The notes beneath the pieces are model-generated. The model was given only the letters and a program-made list of their open reading frames with translations, ran no database searches and was not told where the DNA came from. This document shows, piece by piece, positions 2,908 through 33,576 of a stretch of DNA of 33,578 nt. The stretch lies in NCBI GenBank assembly GCA_052055015.1, contig JBQJIT010000079.1. One strand, written 5' to 3'. This DNA is from Malassezia furfur (taxonomy: Eukaryota). The translations under genes and the position numbers were made by a program. The first letter of the stretch is position 1; each line of letters opens with the position of its first letter.

Positions 2908-3376
2908 GCATTGTCGGTGGGCGGCGCGGCGGGGATCGCGACCTCCACAAGTGATGTATCCCTTGCAGCACCCCAGCTGGTCTCGCCCGCGTCCCCTTGC
3001 GCAGGCGTTCCCTGCCCCGTAGAAAGGATCAAATCGGCCGAAAGTAACCAACCAATTGGGAAATAGAGAACTGCCACGCGTGATTACGCCGTACTGTCAG
3101 AATGCGCTCTCGGCCGGGTTGCCCCAGATCGTGGACAGTGGCTGGCTGTCCCCAAGCGCCTTGCGTGAGAGCAGGGCCCAGCCACCGAGCCCACTCGGTG
3201 CCAGGCAGGCGTAGCCGACGCCGAAGGGACGGGGCCGATCGGATCGGGAGCCCCTGGATCGAGGCGCTCCGCGCGCGAGTATCGCACGCGTCCTTGAACC
3301 TAAACGGCTTCGCATCCCGCGCCTCTTCAGCCCGACATACCCAGTGTGCGAAGATAGGGGAGCAAATTTCGAGGTG

Positions 3377-6300
3377 ATGATCCCCTTCTCTGGCCCTGGT
3401 GGCAGTCCGTCCGTGATGCCCCCCCAAACCGCCGGTTCGTCGGACGAGGCACAGGCGGGGTCGTATGGTATCAGCCCGACGAACAACCTATCTCACGCGG
3501 CCGGCCCGAGTGCGAATAAGCCTTACGGAACACCGTATTCCTCGGTTCATATGCCGCATACAATGGATGCGCTCGATTTGTCCATGTCTCCGCCGTACAT
3601 GCAGCGTATGTCGGCGATGAATGCCCATGGACTGGTCGAGTCGCCCAAGCCCTTCCAGCAGCCGCAGTCGCTTGATGGAAAGCGGCGGCGTACTTCTGCT
3701 GCGACGGCGACCATGAGCCCCTTGCTTGGCACACCGATGCATGGCCCGCCGTCGGGCGAGCACGACGTAGGGCAGATGGGACAACCGGTACGTGCCGCCG
3801 GCTCACACCAGTACATGCATCCCTACCCCATTGGGTTAGGTGTGCACAATACCCCGCCCAATACAGGTTTCTGTTTTCCGCCGGGGATATCTTCGATGCC
3901 GGTGCCTGAGACACCGACGAGCGTCGCGAGTGCACCCGGTGGGCTGCTCAACCAGCAAAATAGCCAGAGCCCGTTGGCGCATCGTGGCACGTTCCATTCC
4001 GTCCAAGGAGAGTTGCCCATAATGCCCAACATGATGGTGCATCAGCAACAGAAGCTGGGGCATGGCATGCCCCCACTGCAGCCCAATATGCATCCGGCGC
4101 AACCCGCGTTCTATGAGTCGCCTACGGCCCGGCGCGTCGGCAGCCATGGTGCTGTGCCGCCCTGGCCTACGCCCGACAGTGATTGCTTCTTCAACGTGTC
4201 ACCGGCCGGTCGGTCGAGCGGTGCAATGCTGCCACCCGGCCAGCAGCCGTCGGCCATGCGACCCGTGCCCCTGCAGCGGCAGTACAGCGCGCCGCAGCCA
4301 CGCGTAACACGGGAGCGAACCGAGCGTAAGGCGTCGACGGATGTGTGGCCCGACGATGTCGAGGTCGCGTTCTGGGAGGCGCTCCGGCTGATTCCCAAAC
4401 TGGGGCGCCGCAAGGTCCTCGTGCATGGAAAGCCGTGCGGACGCAACGAACTAATTGCCGACTACATTGAGCGCAAGACGAACAAGACGCGCTCGCGCAA
4501 GCAAGTCTCGAGTCACATCCAGGTGCTCAAAAATGTCAAACGCAACGATCCCGAGTTCCAGCAGCTAATTGCCGAGCCCGCCGCCGAGGAAGATTACTAC
4601 ACACCGGCGGGCGGCATGATGTATGCGCAGCCTCTGGCCGACTACAGTAGTGGCCTGCTAGGCGTGTCGCTGCTGACGGCGCCCAACGACCCGTCGCTGA
4701 TCGTGTCGCCCTCGCCGCTGTCCTCGGCGACGCTCTCGCCAAACCCCAACTTGATGAGCCCGCTGCCGTCTGGCCTGTCACCGCGGGGCTCGCCCGCGAC
4801 GGGCGCGATCGCGAGTGCACTCGACAACCTGCACTTTACCGCGTCGCCCAAACCCATGGCGCAAGGTGCATTCTCACCGCAGCATATGGCAGAGACGACG
4901 CTCCTGGCAGACGTGGACCCCCCGCCGATGGTGCTTCCGTCGAGCTTTTCGATGTGGACGTATGCGTCTACCACGGAGGACAAGCATGTCTACGCCAAGC
5001 TTGACTCGGCCGCATTGTCGCGTGTGTTGCAGAACGCGACGCCGCTGCCCGTGCTGCCGCTGAGTGCACCCAACTTGTCGAGCTTCCGCTTCCCGAAGCT
5101 GGACGAGATGTACAAGCAGCTTGCATGTCCGTGCTTCCACGTGCATGTGCCGCTGTCGCTACCGCGCCTCGCGCCGACCTCACCGCCGTTTGACCGGTTC
5201 GGCGTGGCACTGTCGCTGGCCAGTACCAAGAACACGCCGCTGTTGTCGGTTCTGTCGATCTACTCGCACTCCAAGTGCGTCTTGTCGATGGTCGAGCGGC
5301 TCGAGGCGCCACGCCCCCTCGCGATGCGCCGCGCCGACTCGCTCAACACGCGCTCGCCGCTGCCCACCGGGGAGGCGCTTGCGCCCGAGGCGAGTGGCGC
5401 TGGGGAGGCGCCCGCAGCGACGTCCGCCGATGGAGCCAAGTCGCCCGCGATGGGCACGCAGGACAAGTACCGCTGGTCGTACCAGGCGCCGTTTGCGTCC
5501 GAGTTCTGGGCCGACTTTTTGTCCCGCAACCACCCCGTGCATATGTACGGGAGCGGCGGACTGGACGTTGCCCCCGCATTCTGCAAGGAGCCCAGCGAAC
5601 GCGCCGCCCTGGGGCTGGCGGTGAGCGGCGTGACGTTTGTGCAAGAGTTTGTGCTGCCCCACAACGCCGACACCCCCGTGCACACCGTGCAGAACCCGCC
5701 GGAACTGAGTGGGCCGCATGTCAGCCCAGGAAGCAAGCTCGGCGAGGTGGTGTGTGTGGTGGCGTGGGAGTACGAATGCGTCGAGATGCCGAGCAAGCAG
5801 TCGGGCGTGCCTGTCGTGTCGCTGATCAAGAACACGGCGCACACCAGCGCCGCCCCTACGCCCAGCGAGCCTAACACGCCGCAGAAAAGCGCCGCAACGA
5901 CGGTACCCAGCACGCCGACGCCGCGGCCCAAGACCATGCTTGGCCTCGAGCTGCAGCCGGCCAACGAGGCGCTGGCGGATTCCGAGCACGTTGGCGCACA
6001 GCCCAGCACACCGCCGCGCGCCACGACTGGCCGCACCGGCGGCGAGGCGTCCGCACGGGATGCCGAGGGCGCTGCAAGCTCGCTTGACGCGCCGCACGCC
6101 GGAGCGAGCACGGGGGGTATGCGGCTGCCGTTGCCGCGCCTCACGACCACCGAGCCGTCGCCACAGGCGCCCGCGGCACTCCAGCGCGATCCGACGCCCG
6201 GGCAGGCCCCGTCGTCGGCGCACGCGCTCGCCGACATGGCGGGGCGCGAGCGTGGCGCCGCGGCCAAAAACGCGGCAAGCAGGTCTGTGGCGGGACTGCA

Positions 6301-6832
6301 GCCCGGGGCGCACTCGCCCTTCCTTTTGCAAAACAACCTTACGAACGACCAGCCGAATTACTCGGCCTTCCTCAACGACACGGGTCATGCCAGCACTCTG
6401 CTCCCCTCAATGAAGTTTGAATCGCTTCACTCGAGCGTCGACCTCCCGTCGTCGTCGTCGAGCGATTCATTCCCGACGGTGTCTGCGCCGATGCGGTCCA
6501 ACTCGATGAGCGTGTTGGACGAGCACGAGTCGGGTCTGCCGATCGGCACCTCCGCCGGCATGAGCGCGACGGTCAATTCGCTCACCGATCCGCTCGCCTT
6601 TGATGCGTCAGGCGACGCGTCTATGCGCCTCGGCATCTCGGCCGGCCAGATGCCGTGGTCGCTGCAGCAGGACTTCATGGACGCCTTCCTCAACAACCCC
6701 ACCTCGGACACGGTCCTGGTCGGACCTGGCTCGCCTCCCAGTGTCTCACCCACCACGCTCACTTTTTCCACTGCTCAGGATACCAGCGCGCGGACACAGC
6801 CGCTCGACGTTTCGCTGATGTCTACCCTGTAA
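3377..6832 (+). CDS. TEC1: TEA/ATTS-domain transcription factor (Tec1/AbaA/TEAD family)
   Basis: TEA domain at ~4340-4535: [24 protein letters not shown]...[31 protein letters not shown]. First in-frame ATG at 3377. Long P/S/Q-rich disordered flanks. The symbol marks the family; orthology is not proven. Confidence 0.92.
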
Positions 6833-26347: not shown

Positions 26348-27961
26348 CTATAGACTAGGTCGTTGTACCGACTGTTGCTTGTGCGTGCGGAGCAGGTTGA
26401 AGCTGAGCGGGCGCAGCGTCAGGTTCTCCTTTTGGACGCGCGTCAGAGCCTCGTGTGCCGTGCGGTCCACCTCAGCGTACACCTCGTCCGGCGTGCCACT
26501 GGCGTCGAGACGCACCCACGCGCCGCCCGACTGCTGCACGAGATGCTCGACGTCCAAAAAGGTTTCGCGCACCACACGCTGGAACGCCTGCTTCTCGTAG
26601 CGTTCATCGCCGTAAGCACTGCGCGAGGCGGCCGTCGCCTCGTCAAGGTCCAAAAAGATAGTCACGTCGGGCATGGGAATACCCACGTCTGGGCTCAGGC
26701 ACCACGTCAGGTCGAGACCCTTGGCGCGCGAGTAGGCAATGCCCGAGAACGCGTAGCGATCGCACACTACCGACTGGCCAGTCGCGAGTGTCTGCATGAT
26801 CGAGTCAATCACCTCCCAGCGGTTCGCCGAGAAGAGCAGATGGATCGCTTCGTCGGGGATGTCGCTCGCATTGGTCAGGTACGCATTGATCATGCCACCA
26901 ATCTGGGTGGTACGGTCGGGGAACTTGACCAGGCGCGCGTGAAGAGCCTGGACCAGCCGGTCCACCTGGGTCGACTTCCCTGCACGGTCGAGGCCCTCGA
27001 CGACGATCAATGCGCCGCGTCCGCTCGGCGGCCCATGGTTCACCCACGCCGGGGCAGGCGGAAGAACCACCTCGGTGGCTTGGCACAGCGCCAACCAGCG
27101 CAATACACGGTCGATGAGGACCTCGCGATGCTTTCCGAGGTAGTTGTGATCACATCCCTCGAGCAAATTGAGCTGGACTGTGCCTGGCCGGCGCGTCGGT
27201 TGTGCAGTGATCACATTGACAAAGTCGGCAGAGTCGATCATGGGTACAATGGCGTCGGCCGTGCCGTGTGCAATGAACATTTGCACCGACGAAGGGACGC
27301 GTTTGACGAAGGCAGGCGTGGGGAATTCACAGCCATCGATAAAGTCCTGCCGCGTCATGCGTACTTTGCGCGGGCCATCGCGACCCGGAAACGTCATCTC
27401 ATAGAAGCCTTTCTCCTTGAACGAGGGTTCGACCTCTGGCAAGCGTTCATAGACGCGCTGCGATTAGCCAGGTGTACATACTCCCATCTCGAAACGACCA
27501 GAAAGCATGATCATCTGCGCCGGCGGCCGGCGGCTCGCCTGGGTCAAGTATTTGCCCACAAAGGTGTACCCGATGGCACAACCTTTGGAGTGGCACACCA
27601 TAAGCTTCACCACGTAGCCAAACCGCTGCTCGAGGTACTCGACAATGTGGTTGAGCTCGTCCGCGTACAGCTCGTACGCGCCGTTGGTCCATTCGCCGGG
27701 AGACTCGCCCTCGCCACGCTGATCAAAACGATAGGAGTCCATATCCAGTTTCTGCGCGAGCGGCTTGAACATGATGCCGTTCTTGTGCGAAGACATGCCA
27801 TGCACAAAGAGGGCCAGCGGCCGGCCCTCCGTATGGCTCCGCTCAAGCAAAGGCGCGTCGGCCCGGACGCCTTTTTGGATAAGGAGCCCCTTGTAGCGTG
27901 GATTGGGGATATCAGCCATCCCCGAATCCAAAAACGGCACGTCCACTACATGTTCCGCCAT
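26348..27961 (-). CDS. CDC8: Fusion protein: N-terminal alpha/beta-hydrolase plus C-terminal thymidylate kinase; exons 27961-27482, 27457-26348
   Basis: Kinase: RGALIVVEGLDRAGKSTQ, FPDRTTQIG, HLLFSANRWE, DRYAFSGIAYS, YGDERYE. Hydrolase: FVHG, FDQRGEGES, CHSKG, HGTADAIVP, GCDHNY. Intron 27458-27481 (GTATGT..CTAAT.CGCAG) joins the two ORF pieces in frame. Confidence 0.88.
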
Positions 27962-28028
27962 GGTGCCAAGACGCGTTGTGGTCCAGATGTGTCTCGCTCC
28001 ACGTGGCTTTCCTGCAACCGACACCGGC

Positions 28029-28841
28029 ATGGGCAGGAAGGCGGAGGTACAGCGCGTGGCGCTCGAGCGCTTGATGGGCCCCGAAGGTACGTGTATACTA
28101 TGTTAATGCAGTAATGGGGACCGCCGACAAGGACATGCACTTTACGGACCCCAAGGTATGCCGCAACTTCTTGTGCGGCACTTGCCCGCACGACTTGTTT
28201 AGCAATACGGTTCGTCGCGCGTGCTCTGACAAGCGCAGAAAATGGACCTGGGTCCATGTCCTCGGTCGCACCTCCCGCGCTATAAAGAGATGTACGATGC
28301 GGCTGTTGCCCGTGGGGAGACTTTCCCTCAGATCACGGCGGAACACGAGCGAAGTATCCACATGTTCATCACCGACATGGACCGCAAAATTGCCGCAAAC
28401 CGGCGACGTCTCGACCAAACGCCTGAGGAGATGGAACGGTCGAATGCGATTATGCGGGATATCAACGAGATTGGCGAGGCTATCACGGCTGCAGAAAACG
28501 AGATGGAAAAATTGGGAGAACAGGGCCAGGTCGAGGAGTCGCTCAAGGAGCTCGCCAAGGTCGATGCACTCAAAGCCGAGCGCAGTGAAAAGGAGAAGGA
28601 GTTCCAGGTGCTGCAAGAGAACAGTGGTGCAAGTGGTCACCAAAAACTACGTGTGTGTGATGTGTGTGGTGCCTACTTGTCCATTCTCGACTCGGACCGC
28701 CGCCTGGCGGACCATTTCAGCGGCAAGATGCACTTGGGATACTTACGGCTTCGTGAACTCCTCGTGGATTTTGAAAAGCGGAAACAGTCTGGTGGTGCGC
28801 CGCGCCAGGATACCTCGCGTCGTCGGAGTCGATCTCCATAG
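28029..28841 (+). CDS. LUC7: U1 snRNP-associated splicing factor Luc7; exons 28029-28086, 28112-28209, 28239-28841
   Basis: LERLMG, first zinc finger VCRNFLCGTCPHDLFSNT|KMDLGPCPRSH, second zinc finger QKLRVCDVCGAYLSILDSDRRLADHFSGKMHLGY, and a short RS tail. Confidence 0.95.
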
Positions 28842-28889: not shown

Positions 28890-30221
28890 ATGCCTGCGGG
28901 GTGGAAATCGTACGCTGACATTGTTCGTGTGAGGACCCAGGAGCTCTTTAGCAAGGCCTCTGAGAGCGGTGGAGCAAAGCCACGAGAGGGAGGGACAGCA
29001 TCATCACCTCCCCAACCGGCATTGACCGCCCAACCGGATGCGACCTTAACCAAACCTATCGAATCTGCTTCGACAACGCATGCGCCCTTCCCCGAAATTT
29101 CCGATACGAAACTCAAGAGCGTCTTTGCAAGCGTGACCCCCTCAGGCACGAGCCAAGCGGCATGTGTGCGTTCTGCTCTTCTGGAGATGGAGTGTATGTT
29201 GCGTATGTCTAACGCAGTGGCCTACCGCATGGACCCCTGCCTATTGAACCAGAAGAGCAACACGGTCGAGGGCTACTGGCTCCTCGCCGAACTGCTGCGC
29301 CGGGTGGCCGTCGATTCCAAAGACCCGTTACCCATGTTGACTGGCGGAGGTGATGAGACGTTGGGTGCGTCGAGCTCGAAGGGTGCGCAATGGCTCCCGA
29401 TGCGCTCCTCTCGCGCATATGAGCCGCACGATGTTTATGCTGCCGTTGAGCGTAAAGATGTTGACACGATCATGGCAATTCGTGACGCAAACTTTGCGCT
29501 GCTACTCGGTGGGGACGATGCCCGCACTCCACTGGAGTACGCCATCAGCTTGGGCCCTGCGTACGAACGCGTGAGCCTTTTTCTGGCGGGTGCTTTGTCT
29601 CGCTTCGTGAACAATTTGCCCGACGAGATGCAGAAGGCGGACCCTGAGACACTCGCGGTGCTGCGCAAGGTGCGCGCCAATCTGAAGCTTGCCATCGATC
29701 ACAGTCTTGGGCGTGAGCAGACCTCGATGGTCGCCTCCTATGTCCAGATTCTCGTCATGGCCGAAGGGCTGCAATGGGTGACGCAGTCGGCCCGGGCGAT
29801 AGCGTACGAGCTGCGGTCGCGTGCCTCGGCGGATCCGTACGCAACTTGCCCGACGCAAGTGGCGCAGGACATTGTGGGCCGCTTCCTCACACAGAACCTA
29901 CGCATGCGTCGCGATCGGGACCACTATGTGGTCGCGGCGATTGAAGACTACATCGCCAACGCTGCCTCGGACCTGGTTCTTCTGGCGCTATGGGACTGTG
30001 TCCGCGGCGCTGATGATCCGCTGCCCGACTACGCTTTTGCACGCGACGACCGACTTTCCGTGGCGTTTGTGAGCGCCGTGACGCGTGCGGAGCGCAAGGA
30101 CGAGCGGCGCCCGCAACGGATCTGGGTGCAGGCGCAGCGCGCGGCTGACGCGCTGCAAAGTGGATTACGAAGCCGGACGGCGCATGAGCGCCTTGCGTTA
30201 CTCGCACAGATTGTAGACTAA
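28890..30221 (+). CDS. Hypothetical helical protein with an ankyrin-like segment; probable in-frame intron 29194-29217
   Basis: A 443-codon ORF fills the gap between LUC7 and the last gene. VYAAVERKDV...TPLEYAISLG is ankyrin-like. Intron candidate GTATGT..CTAAC.GCAG. Confidence 0.75.
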   Translation: MPAGWKSYADIVRVRTQELFSKASESGGAKPREGGTASSPPQPALTAQPDATLTKPIESASTTHAPFPEISDTKLKSVFASVTPSGTSQAACVRSALLEMECMLRMSNAVAYRMDPCLLNQKSNTVEGYWLLAELLRRVAVDSKDPLPMLTGGGDETLGASSSKGAQWLPMRSSRAYEPHDVYAAVERKDVDTIMAIRDANFALLLGGDDARTPLEYAISLGPAYERVSLFLAGALSRFVNNLPDEMQKADPETLAVLRKVRANLKLAIDHSLGREQTSMVASYVQILVMAEGLQWVTQSARAIAYELRSRASADPYATCPTQVAQDIVGRFLTQNLRMRRDRDHYVVAAIEDYIANAASDLVLLALWDCVRGADDPLPDYAFARDDRLSVAFVSAVTRAERKDERRPQRIWVQAQRAADALQSGLRSRTAHERLALLAQIVD

Positions 30222-30234
30222 ACACGACGATTCT

Positions 30235-33200
30235 CTAGTACGATTTCTTGGCGGCAGTCAAGGGGTCATTGTTCAGCAGCGCCGCCCAGCGTCCTCCACG
30301 CTTGGGCGCCGAGTTCTGCCGGCGATGGCGCCCGCTTGCGGACGGCGCCGAACCGACCGAGCTGGCCGTGGGCTGCGGCGGCTGGGTCGTGTTCGACGCG
30401 CCCTGGGGCTTCATGCCGAGTTGCGCACGCTGCGGCGAACTGGACGCGCGCGGCTGCTGCGACTTGGGGAGCATGGGAACGTTAAACGAATTGTCCGACA
30501 TTTGGTGCGCCGCAGGGATGCTGCCCTTGCGGCCGGACGACGTCGTGTAGGCGTAGCCATCATACGTTGGCTGTGCAAACGACTCGTACGTCTGACCAGG
30601 CTGCAGGCCCTGGACGCGCGGCGCACGCGGCGCCTCGGCACGACTCGGCTTGGCCCGTGTCGCCTGGCGCGGCGCCTCGGCCTGCGGCACCTCGGCCCGT
30701 GCGGGACGGGCCTCGTAGCCCTCAAGAGGCTGGCCGTACGCATCGACGGGGCGGCCGTACGCATCATACTGGGCGTATTCGTACGGCTGCTGGGGGTACT
30801 GCTCGTACGGCTGGCCGTACTGGTCGTACGCCTGAGGGTCGTACGACGCCTGGGCCTGGTCGTACTGTGCGTACTGCTGGGCGTAGCCGCTGGGGTCGTA
30901 CTGCGCATAGTCGTACGCCTGCTGCTGGCCCTGGTCGTAGCCCGCATACGCATTCGGATCGTACGTCGGCTGCGCGCCGTATGCCTGCTGTTGCGGGTCA
31001 TACATTGGCTGGCCATACGCATCGTACGCGGCTTGCTGCTCGTACGCAGCCTGCTGCTCGTACGCGCCGGCCTGCTGCTCGTAAGCGCCGACCTGCTGGC
31101 CGTACGCATCGTACGCGGCCTGCTGTTCGTACGCGCTGGGCTGTTGACCGTACGCGTCGTACGCCTGCGTCGGTTGCGGTGCCGCCTGCGAGGCGTAGGA
31201 CCGCGACGTGCGCTGCTTGGCTGGCGACTTGCTCACGGGTGTCGGCGCCTGCGACGTCTGCTCGGCGTAGCCATACTCTTCCATCTCGTAGAGCGGGCGG
31301 CCGCCGCCAAACTCGTCGTACAGCTCTTCGTCCGGAGTCTTGCGGGCGGGGATAGCGCCAGGCGCAGCGAGCGACTGCGTCGGTGCCGCATGCCGTTCGC
31401 GTGGGGCCTCTTGTGCCTCGGCTGGCAAGGGCGGCAGCGGCTGCGACATTTCACGGCGCAGCTCGGCCTCCTGCTCAGCGGCCGAGGGGAGCACGGGCGT
31501 CGTCTTGACGCGGTGGTGTTGCTCCAACTCGTCCAGGTTGAAGAGGTGAGTATCGATCGGCTCGAGGTCCGACGCCAAAAAGTCGTCGAGCAAGCGGCCG
31601 CTTCCGGTCGAGTTCATCCGCGAGAGGCGCGGGCCCGCCGAGTGGCTCACCGAATCGGAACGCGTGGGCTGCGCGTCCTTGGGCGGCACCGGCGGCTGCG
31701 CAACCTCCGTCTTGAACGTCGGCTTAAACTGGCGGCGCGCCTTGAGGAACGCATCGAGGTCGGGCGACTGCGGCGCACTGCCGACACGCGGGCTCGTGCT
31801 CGGCTTGCGGCGCAGCCAGTCGTCCGAGTTCCACTGCACGCCCTTGCCCGCAAACCGCTCGCTGGGGCGCACATGCTCGGCGGACGCCGCCGGCGCCGGC
31901 GCAGTGGGCGCCGTGTGCGTCGGCTCGTCGCTGGGGATTACCGAGAGCGGCACACCGAGCGACGAGGCACGCGCCATGGCACGGGGGTAGTCCACCTCGT
32001 CCATCGCGCGGATAAAGCGCGCGACAGACTCAGGGTCGTAGGCCGCCGAGCCTCGCAGGCCCTGCGACGCCTGCGCGGTACTCGGCGCCGTGGCAGTCTG
32101 CGCCGTGGACGCACGACTCAGACGGTCCGATGGTGCGTCGGCAACCGACTGCTCCTCGCTCTCGGGTACCGTTTGCAGGTACCGAGGGTGTGCGTCATAG
32201 CCCTGCGCCTGCTCGTAGGCCTCGGTAGGCTGGCGCGTCTCAGCCGGTTCGTACGCCGCAGAGGGCTCGACGGTCGTTGCGTACGCGGCCTGCGACACGG
32301 GGTCGACAGACCAAGTGTACTGAGGTTGTGCCGGCGCCGTGTACGACGGCTGCGGTGCAGGCTGGTCGAGCGACTTGGCATAGCCCGTCGGCTGCTGCGC
32401 AGGCTTGTCCAACGACTTGGCATAGCCCGTCGACGGCGCCGTCGACAGCTCCGTCTCGGGCGAGATGTAGCGCGGCAGAGCCATGTACGTCGCACGCGGC
32501 ACCGGCTGCGAGCTGGGCGCCGGCACCGACACTGGCACAGGCACAGGCTCCGGCACCGACTCGTGATGCGTCGGCAGTGCAGGCTCGCCCTCGGTCTCGG
32601 TAAGGTCAGGACGCGTCGTCGCCATCATCTCGAGATCGTGCTTCGTGGTCTCGGTGGCCTCGCGACGCTCGGCCAGCGTCGTGGCAGGGTCGATCTGCGT
32701 CATGTCCGGACGCGTGGTGGCCAGCGTCTCGAGGCCATGCTGGACCTTGTGCTCGTCGTGCGCATGTGGCGAGGCTGACGACGGCGCCAGTGGGGCCTGC
32801 GAGACACCGGCATACGTCGGCTGCGTAGGAACATAGGTCGGCTGCGCGGCCACGTACGTCGGCTCAGGCACGGAAACCGCCGCGGACTCGCTGGGCATCG
32901 ACTCGTGCGACACGGGCTGACCAAGCGCCGCATACGAGTCGCTGCTCATGATGGGCGCCGCAGACGGGGCCATGGCAGTGACTGGCACCTGAGCCGCCTC
33001 GGCCACCGGCACCTGGGCCGACGTGCGCGTGTCCGACGAAGCGGTGCGGCCGTGCGTAGAGATGGGGCGCGTCTCGTGCGAGGACGTCTCGGACAAGTCG
33101 GGGCGCTTGTGCGACAACACCGACCAGTCGCGCTTGAGGTGCGCACCTGCATCATGCTGCAGCTGGTGGGCATCCGCGTGCGACGTCTCAGTAAGATCGG

Positions 33201-33576
33201 GGCGGGTGTCGGCGAGCGTCTCCCAATCACGACGGATGTGTTCCTTGGACACGCGCGGCTCAGGCTCAGTGAAATCGGGACGCGTCGTCTCGAGCGTCTG
33301 CAAGTCGTGCTGCACCTGTTCCTTGGACGCAAGCGGCACAGGACCAGGCTCGGCAGTCTCGACCAGGTCCGGCCGCGTCGTCTCGAGCATCTTCAGGTCC
33401 TGTTTGGCATGCTCCGTCGCGGTGTGCTGTGCCGTGTGCGTGTCAGCCAGGTCAGGACGCGTCGTAGCGAGTGACTCCAAGTCCTGCTTGAGGTGGTCCG
33501 AGACAGGACGCGAGCGCTGGCTGGGGCTTTCAGCAGGGCGCGTCGCATCGCCGCCACGCATGCTCAGCGGCGTCAT
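30235..33576 (-). CDS. Large low-complexity repeat protein, probably disordered; the N-terminus may lie beyond the window
   Basis: 1113-codon ORF rich in A/P/Q/T/S/E, with internal peptide repeats that vary mainly at third codon positions in this frame. The ATG is 2 nt from the window edge. Confidence 0.85.
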   Translation of the reverse strand: MTPLSMRGGDATRPAESPSQRSRPVSDHLKQDLESLATTRPDLADTHTAQHTATEHAKQDLKMLETTRPDLVETAEPGPVPLASKEQVQHDLQTLETTRPDFTEPEPRVSKEHIRRDWETLADTRPDLTETSHADAHQLQHDAGAHLKRDWSVLSHKRPDLSETSSHETRPISTHGRTASSDTRTSAQVPVAEAAQVPVTAMAPSAAPIMSSDSYAALGQPVSHESMPSESAAVSVPEPTYVAAQPTYVPTQPTYAGVSQAPLAPSSASPHAHDEHKVQHGLETLATTRPDMTQIDPATTLAERREATETTKHDLEMMATTRPDLTETEGEPALPTHHESVPEPVPVPVSVPAPSSQPVPRATYMALPRYISPETELSTAPSTGYAKSLDKPAQQPTGYAKSLDQPAPQPSYTAPAQPQYTWSVDPVSQAAYATTVEPSAAYEPAETRQPTEAYEQAQGYDAHPRYLQTVPESEEQSVADAPSDRLSRASTAQTATAPSTAQASQGLRGSAAYDPESVARFIRAMDEVDYPRAMARASSLGVPLSVIPSDEPTHTAPTAPAPAASAEHVRPSERFAGKGVQWNSDDWLRRKPSTSPRVGSAPQSPDLDAFLKARRQFKPTFKTEVAQPPVPPKDAQPTRSDSVSHSAGPRLSRMNSTGSGRLLDDFLASDLEPIDTHLFNLDELEQHHRVKTTPVLPSAAEQEAELRREMSQPLPPLPAEAQEAPRERHAAPTQSLAAPGAIPARKTPDEELYDEFGGGRPLYEMEEYGYAEQTSQAPTPVSKSPAKQRTSRSYASQAAPQPTQAYDAYGQQPSAYEQQAAYDAYGQQVGAYEQQAGAYEQQAAYEQQAAYDAYGQPMYDPQQQAYGAQPTYDPNAYAGYDQGQQQAYDYAQYDPSGYAQQYAQYDQAQASYDPQAYDQYGQPYEQYPQQPYEYAQYDAYGRPVDAYGQPLEGYEARPARAEVPQAEAPRQATRAKPSRAEAPRAPRVQGLQPGQTYESFAQPTYDGYAYTTSSGRKGSIPAAHQMSDNSFNVPMLPKSQQPRASSSPQRAQLGMKPQGASNTTQPPQPTASSVGSAPSASGRHRRQNSAPKRGGRWAALLNNDPLTAAKKSY
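30716..31170 (-). repeat. Tyr/Gln/Ala-rich coding repeats (AYDAYGQ, AYEQQ, YDP)
   Basis: The translation shows repeated AYDAYGQQ, AYEQQA, YDP and QPYE units; on the plus strand CGTACG and CTGCTG units recur. Confidence 0.85.
32371..32432 (-). repeat. Coding tandem duplication with 42-nt period (TGYAKSLD x2)
   Basis: CGACTTGGCATAGCCCGTCG is present exactly at 32371-32390 and 32413-32432. Confidence 0.85.
32593..33495 (-). repeat. Seven dispersed copies of a ~19-aa coding repeat, consensus x-K-x-D-L-E-x-L-A/E-T-T-R-P-D-L-x-E-T
   Basis: HLKQDLESLATTRPDLADT, HAKQDLKMLETTRPDLVET, QVQHDLQTLETTRPDFTEP, HIRRDWETLADTRPDLTET, HLKRDWSVLSHKRPDLSET, KVQHGLETLATTRPDMTQI, TTKHDLEMMATTRPDLTET. Confidence 0.9.

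Follow-up and report, generated by a model that had tools for sequence, protein, structure and literature searches.

A divergent YAP-binding domain homologue of the TEAD type in a TEA-family transcription factor of Malassezia furfur

Does a transcription factor gene on a 33,578-nucleotide stretch of Malassezia furfur DNA (assembly GCA_052055015.1, contig JBQJIT010000079.1; "the window" below means this whole stretch) encode, behind its TEA domain, a counterpart of the YAP-binding domain (YBD) of the animal TEAD proteins, and what could such a domain do in a fungus? The question was raised by a sequence-only reading, which had paired a block of the translation by eye with the YBD of human TEAD1 and had proposed that this lineage keeps an ancestral TEA plus YBD architecture. 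The gene is an open frame on the plus strand that runs stop to stop from 3215 to 6832, with a first ATG at 3377 and a product of 1151 amino acids (aa) as judged from the open reading frame (ORF) lists and the translation. Throughout, P0001 denotes the stop-to-stop translation from 3215 and P0002 the translation of window 4928-5830, the block originally proposed, which lies within the same frame and gives 301 aa without a stop. Our data suggest, with good confidence, that the block belongs to a diverged homologue of the TEAD YBD in a Tec1/TEAD-family factor, that this domain would most likely serve as a platform on which a partner protein docks, and that acylation of the kind seen in TEADs would be unlikely.

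That the protein is a TEA/ATTS factor is clear from Pfam, where PF01285 scores 96.6 bits against a cut-off of 25.1 and covers profile positions 2-67 of 68, and fungal profiles containing the TEA domain match the TEA-domain chains of TEAD (2hzd, 5gzb) at E 1e-26 to 1e-30; Pfam gives no other noteworthy match in P0001. The YBD-fold domain follows on the same polypeptide, C-terminal to the TEA domain and separated from it by about 120 residues.

The block is a well conserved unit. Its closest relative is a protein of 1146 aa (P0003) that is 92% identical over the domain, followed by a Malassezia psittaci protein at 63% identity over the block and then by other Malassezia, Ustilaginales and Exobasidiomycetes. 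All 54 close relatives align from P0002 residues 1-4 to residues 286-301, which places the proposed borders near those of the conserved unit, and a phmmer search of the whole library with the block found 53 proteins at E up to 0.001, 22 of them below 1e-30. We modelled P0002 with AlphaFold2 (AF2) without templates, from an alignment of 85 rows that had all been found with the block itself, none of them labelled as YBD by Pfam and the named ones all Ustilaginomycotina. The model is confident (mean predicted local distance difference test score, pLDDT, 88.3; predicted template-modelling score 0.83; 228 of 301 residues at pLDDT of at least 90) and contains ten strands of at least three residues and six helices; an insertion at P0002 201-220, the second in the chain, is predicted at pLDDT 74-81. 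In a second AF2 model, started 52 residues further upstream, P0001 residues 560-571 form a further short strand predicted at a pLDDT of about 95, so that the domain would begin near window 4892 and not at 4928. The description of an ordered, beta-rich block of some 300 residues downstream of the TEA domain is thus confirmed, and its coordinates stand as a conserved stretch in a single frame with the start moved to about 4892.

Structure comparison of the model supports a TEAD-type fold. When it was searched with Foldseek against 350,542 PDB chains, the top 50 listed matches were without exception YBDs of TEAD1-4 or Scalloped, at E 3.7e-10 to 3.2e-9, with a probability of 1.00 and a template-modelling (TM) score on the target of 0.65-0.72. 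VIA-align, which is independent of Foldseek and was run against 48,161 representative chains, returned the YBD of TEAD2 (9neo_A) as its best match at Z 16.5, with 183 of 199 residues aligned at a root-mean-square deviation of 2.8 Å and 17% identity, and this was the one chain above Z 8. The runners-up were UNC119 (Z 7.4), PDE6D (Z 7.1) and UNC119B (Z 6.7). The YBD fold, a beta-sandwich with flanking helix pairs, is thus the best and a nearly complete structural match, and the predicted structure argues for a TEAD-type YBD fold placed behind the TEA domain, as the claim of collinearity with TEAD had implied.

The sequence evidence for common ancestry comes from fungi in which the YBD is already recognised. 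A search for TEA domains among shorter proteins gave 396 matches, of which 120 were listed; among these 120, PF17725, the Pfam YBD family, stands beside PF01285 in 75, mostly under source names from Mucoromycota. On re-scanning ten of the listed proteins with Pfam, all six labelled ones reached the YBD cut-off (27-46 bits against 23), and the four unlabelled ones (Cystobasidium, Rhodotorula, Pneumocystis and Dipodascopsis) gave the TEA domain only. We then compared, with hhalign, the block profile cut from our basidiomycete-only alignment A1 with one built from what follows the TEA domain in the 75 labelled Mucoromycota proteins. The two profiles align over 198 columns that cover the YBD part of the template, at 98.3% probability, E 2.3e-14 and a score of 107.8, whereas one reversed and ten column-shuffled templates scored between 10.4 and 17.1 at E 0.19-0.86. 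A hidden Markov model (HMM) built from the block only also matches 42 of 119 TEA proteins from the listed set, and in both proteins that were checked (P0111 and P0103) its match lies inside the Pfam YBD range. Finally, a TEA-free fungal profile of 26 rows (18 from the block's own family, the named ones Ustilaginomycotina, with 7 from Mucoromycota and 1 from Pneumocystis) retrieved TEAD4 YBD chains from the PDB at E 5.1e-9. The block is thus homologous, by profile comparison, to accepted members of the YBD family, and the profile-profile match to labelled Mucoromycota proteins of TEA plus YBD build backs the idea of an ancestral architecture.

The pairing with TEAD that had been made by eye held up in part. 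The HMMER alignment to TEAD4 agrees with it in six of the eight segments, the first four within the significant stretch and the last two of the six not significant on their own; the remaining two, namely the segment with the acyl-cysteine motif and the last strand, were left unaligned.

The residues that are kept most strictly lie partly in helices. Using P0002 numbering and alignments of 85 rows and of the 26 mixed rows, we found that every row of the mixed alignment, whether from Basidiomycota, Pneumocystis or Mucoromycota, has C67, F193 and F197, and that L58, G115, F189, L198, A231 and Q239 are nearly invariant. The stretch F189-L198 and residue A231 fall on the model helices H191-199 and H222-233, which would correspond to the pair that forms the groove for the YAP or Vgll helix in TEAD. 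Cys67 (window 5126-5128; P0001 aa 638) is present in 85 of 85 and 26 of 26 fungal rows and is paired by HMMER with an asparagine of TEAD4.

A different picture holds for the cysteine that carries the acyl group in animal TEADs. Its position, which we take from the motif given in the sequence-only reading, would by collinearity fall at P0002 188-192. Over P0002 185-193 no position has a cysteine in more than 1 of 85 rows, and the mixed alignment shows it in 0 of 26 at 188-193 and in 1 of 26 at 187; a cysteine at 184 is found in 20 of 85 rows but is too far upstream to be equivalent. Moreover, the cysteine that precedes the conserved Ser-Phe-Gly of the TEAD4 chain corresponds to tyrosine in 75 of the 85 fungal rows. 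The earlier statement that the palmitoylated cysteine appears to be missing is therefore borne out by collinearity. Since the Mucoromycota members that Pfam accepts also have no cysteine at this place, the residue marks the animal TEADs and not the family as a whole. As no conserved counterpart exists, S-palmitoylation of the fungal domain is, on alignment evidence, unlikely, and any lipid in its core would be bound non-covalently.

Several results weigh against the assignment. The Pfam YBD model matches neither P0001 nor P0002 at E up to 10, nor any of 42 Dikarya-type or other relatives at E up to 1; phmmer with the block found nothing in the PDB; the basidiomycete-only profile A1 reached only TEA-domain chains there, at E up to 10; and identity to the matched TEAD chains is just 11-17%. 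The comparison of the acyl-cysteine place was made by collinearity, HMMER having left that segment unaligned. A conserved predicted helix in the linker ahead of the domain (M1, Table 1) was considered as a ligand docking on it in cis, in the manner of a Vgll or YAP helix, and found unsupported, with a pLDDT of only about 60 in the AF2 model. A search of the ESM Atlas with the block also returned nothing. As A1 and the single-sequence searches miss the YBD, the link to animals at the sequence level runs via Mucoromycota, whereas the structural link is direct. Of the profile check against Pfam and the PDB proposed at the outset, the Pfam half thus failed and the PDB half succeeded once the mixed fungal profile was used. 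Because the Pfam threshold is not reached and the animal acylation site is absent, we place the domain in the YBD family as a divergent member and do not count it as a PF17725 match.

Compared with the YBDs of animal TEAD1-4 and Scalloped (PF17725; PDB 9neo, 5emw, 3l15, 8a8q), the fungal domain has the same fold, occupies the same place behind the TEA domain and keeps the conserved segments in collinear order. It differs in size, with about 313 aa against about 200 in animal TEAD, since it contains a disordered insertion and two or three that are ordered, and in having no conserved cysteine where animal TEAD carries its acylated one. The Mucoromycota proteins (from Mortierella, Mucor, Rhizopus, Umbelopsis and others) are fungal too, arranged as TEA then YBD, and share the invariant C67, F193 and F197. 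Their YBDs are, however, compact, taking up only about 200 aa where these proteins, 390-660 aa long, come to their C-terminal end, and reach the Pfam cut-off, whereas the M. furfur protein, with its 1151 aa, long disordered tails and inserted loops, is missed by Pfam.

A survey of fungal TEA proteins shows that the domain is widespread among those gathered. A combined fungal domain HMM matches 94 of the 99 TEA proteins of at least 390 aa that we gathered, the misses being a Podila fragment, one other protein, Dipodascopsis (Saccharomycotina) and the two Pucciniomycotina Rhodotorula and Cystobasidium. In the TEA proteins of these last three genera neither the HMM nor hhalign detected the domain, which may reflect loss or divergence beyond the reach of these methods. 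In Pneumocystis, an early-branching ascomycete, the domain scores 54 bits with the basidiomycete HMM, and a search started from the Pneumocystis domain for other ascomycetes yielded six Pneumocystis proteins only.

Stand-alone YBD proteins were considered and rejected. Of 31 distant phmmer matches 22 have no TEA domain, but 13 of these 22 start at an internal methionine within the motif that follows the TEA domain directly in P0065 and P0072, which identifies the TEA-less proteins as ORF calls that lack their 5' part, an intron being the probable point of the cut. Many domain-bearing database proteins among P0063-P0092 are such calls, beginning at an internal methionine just past the TEA domain and so looking falsely TEA-less. 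A gene model can also stop short at the other end, as in a deposited 323-aa protein of Malassezia obtusa (P0094), which skips part of the N-terminal region and ends nine residues into the YBD, so that the domain is absent from that annotated protein.

The factor reads DNA through its TEA domain. If the YBD-fold domain acts as it does in animals, a partner protein would dock on it and thereby activate or silence the DNA-bound factor. The predicted docking surface would belong to a YBD-like beta-sandwich flanked by helices and enlarged by about 100 insertion residues, one insertion being disordered. YAP/Yorkie (Yki) is reported from holozoans only, and the partner of the fungal domain must therefore differ. 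According to a paper that summarises Sebe-Pedros 2012, Sd/TEAD was present in the unikont ancestor and Yki is confined to holozoans (PMC4761220). Candidates would be a factor of the Ste12 type, on the model of the Tec1-Ste12 pair of yeast, and some other co-regulator that bears a helix. Tec1 of Saccharomyces cerevisiae and AbaA of Aspergillus, the founding fungal TEA/ATTS factors, belong to the same TEA family, and the Pseudozyma orthologue P0029 bears the source name 'Ty transcription activator TEC1'. Tec1 acts in complex with its partner Ste12: the budding yeast protein works in a Tec1/Ste12/Dig1 complex according to PMC2538907, and a Tec1/Ste12 complex is described in PMC13117471 too. The one Saccharomycotina TEA protein that was examined (Dipodascopsis, P0201) shows no detectable domain, and Pneumocystis has it. 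It is conceivable, if on balance doubtful, that cofactor control of TEA factors predates YAP and still works across fungi, with the cryptic YBD of Dikarya binding a helix-bearing partner, perhaps of the Ste12 type, in the groove that receives YAP and Vgll in animals; if this were true, Tec1-Ste12 would be the fungal counterpart of TEAD-YAP, and Cys67, which TEAD4 lacks, might mark a site of modification peculiar to fungi.

Other explanations of the domain have to be weighed against partner docking. It might be chiefly a beta-sandwich for binding or sensing lipids, of the TEAD/PDE-delta/UNC119 kind, holding a fatty acid or prenyl group non-covalently, in which case a lipid and not a protein would control the factor. 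The three folds that come next behind TEAD in VIA-align all bind lipids, and many of the matched TEAD entries hold palmitate or myristate in their core, as their titles state; yet these lipid-binding folds score far below TEAD, and nothing conserved stands in place of the acylated cysteine (no more than 1 of 85 rows at any position, as given above). PDE6-delta, UNC119 and RhoGDI have the general sandwich topology in common with the domain (Z 4.9-7.4 over 125-133 aligned residues), but they have no helix pair and no link to TEA domains. We regard lipid control as unlikely, and it would in any case be compatible with partner docking, the two not being exclusive. It is also rather improbable that the domain is a YBD homologue that has lost any part in docking and has been kept as a structural, stability or self-association module. 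Such a role would fit with YAP or Vgll not being expected in fungi, given PMC4761220, and with the TEA factors of Dipodascopsis, Rhodotorula and Cystobasidium, which can manage without the domain or with an unrecognisable form of it; against it, the domain is kept in nearly all of the TEA proteins of at least 390 aa surveyed above, and the invariance of surface-helix residues across Mucoromycota, Pneumocystis and Basidiomycota points to more constraint than a passive spacer needs. Convergence, in which a common immunoglobulin-like sandwich would happen to stand behind the TEA domain without sharing an ancestor with the TEAD YBD, is already close to refuted, since the failure of the Pfam model and of single-sequence searches and the low identity to TEAD are outweighed by a Z of 16.5 over 183 of 199 residues where every other fold cluster stays at or below 7.4, by an identical position relative to the TEA domain, by a profile-profile E of 2.3e-14 where controls give 0.19 or worse, and by graded intermediates in the form of Mucoromycota proteins matched alike by the Pfam YBD and by the block HMM. 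Partner docking on a diverged YBD thus remains our preferred reading.

Table 1. The TEA factor gene and the features recognised within it (window positions, plus strand where marked; residue numbers refer to P0001 unless P0002 is named)
Feature	Window	Strand	Residues	Basis
TEA/ATTS (Tec1/TEAD-family) transcription factor gene, intronless	3377..6832	+	1151 aa	ORF lists, translation
TEA/ATTS DNA-binding domain	4337..4534	+	375-440	PF01285, E 1.1e-27
Conserved extension right after the TEA domain (40 residues)	4535..4654	+	441-480	Sliding identity 0.75-0.88, 55 aligned full-length relatives
Linker motif M1, predicted helix	4796..4837	+		Conserved in most of 55 aligned rows and in more distant fragments
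YBD-fold domain	4892..5830	+	560-872 (about 313 aa)	AF2 models, Foldseek, VIA-align, hhalign with controls, TEA-free fungal profile against PDB
Low-complexity insertion, probably disordered	5318..5470	+	P0002 131-181	Block-mean pLDDT 47-69; length and sequence vary among relatives
C-terminal amphipathic motif M2	6662..6709	+		Aligned across Malassezia, Ustilaginales-type and Exobasidiomycete-type relatives

Conservation across 55 full-length relatives is confined to the TEA domain with its 40-residue extension, the short linker motif and the block, the remainder of the protein being poorly conserved. P0065 and P0072, two distant relatives, carry the extension motif directly behind their TEA domains as well. 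The M1 helix lies about 20 residues ahead of the YBD-fold domain and is kept from Malassezia to Ustilaginales-type relatives. A motif resembling M2 occurs at the end of more distant fragments, and M2 is possibly an activation motif; folding the domain together with the last 77 residues of the protein, M2 among them, gave a score of 0.00, which, having been run without alignments or controls, is evidence neither way. Within the N-terminal region, which is otherwise unconserved, a basic Lys-Arg-Arg-Arg patch at window 3680-3691 (P0001 aa 156-159) is kept in at least 70% of the 55 relatives and may be a nuclear localisation signal.

The neighbouring genes are ordinary housekeeping genes, encoding Rpp40, an FeS-assembly/MIP18-type protein, Sec1, cysteinyl-tRNA synthetase, a peroxidase and a PP2A B56 subunit. 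The RNase P Rpp40 family (PF08584) is split across the adjacent plus-strand ORFs 85-825 and 926-1735 upstream of the TEA gene, probably because of an intron or a frame change. In Malassezia cuniculi the corresponding model (P0020) has Rpp40 and the TEA factor fused into a single 1441-aa protein, which indicates conserved gene order together with a merged gene model. For four large ORFs in the window, 26543-28114 (+), 28890-30221 (+), 30235-33576 (-) and 30325-32778 (+), Pfam gives no match at E up to 1e-5. The third and the fourth overlap, one on each strand, in a stretch of 67-69% G+C, and either could be the gene.

How much of this is new has to be stated with care. Databases already record both the family and its occurrence in fungi, as the 75 labelled proteins show, and to that extent the expected novelty is reduced; it holds for the block's own relatives, where a precomputed YBD label was found in 0 of 54 Ustilaginomycotina-type proteins and, as noted above, a Pfam match in 0 of 42. 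Our literature search found no description of a YBD in fungal Tec1/AbaA-type proteins, although Sebe-Pedros 2012 may already discuss fungal Sd domains. What seems to be unrecorded is the persistence of the domain in Ustilaginomycotina, in a second, more distant group and in Pneumocystis, with the proviso that other InterPro databases or AlphaFold-DB may label it, and likewise the enlarged form of the domain and the general absence of the acyl-cysteine in fungal members.

Fungi rely on Tec1-type factors to direct filamentation, the formation of biofilms and virulence programmes. In basidiomycetes their function has rarely been revealed, according to a 2026 paper (PMC13117471). Our data indicate that basidiomycete and Pneumocystis factors retain a fold for cofactor docking which the standard domain library does not recognise, and add Dikarya to the animals and Mucoromycota as bearers of the TEA plus YBD architecture. 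They also expose gaps in annotation, in that truncated gene models and 5'-cut ORF calls hide this architecture in public protein sets. The fungal YBDs moreover form a naturally occurring group that lacks the acylated cysteine and could help to show the role of the lipid in TEADs, and P0001 residues 560-872 are a concrete bait for co-regulators. The M. furfur factor does not represent a new kind of system; it provides a useful lead that can be put to the test, both in the study of fungal transcription and in tracing how TEAD factors were controlled by cofactors before animals arose.

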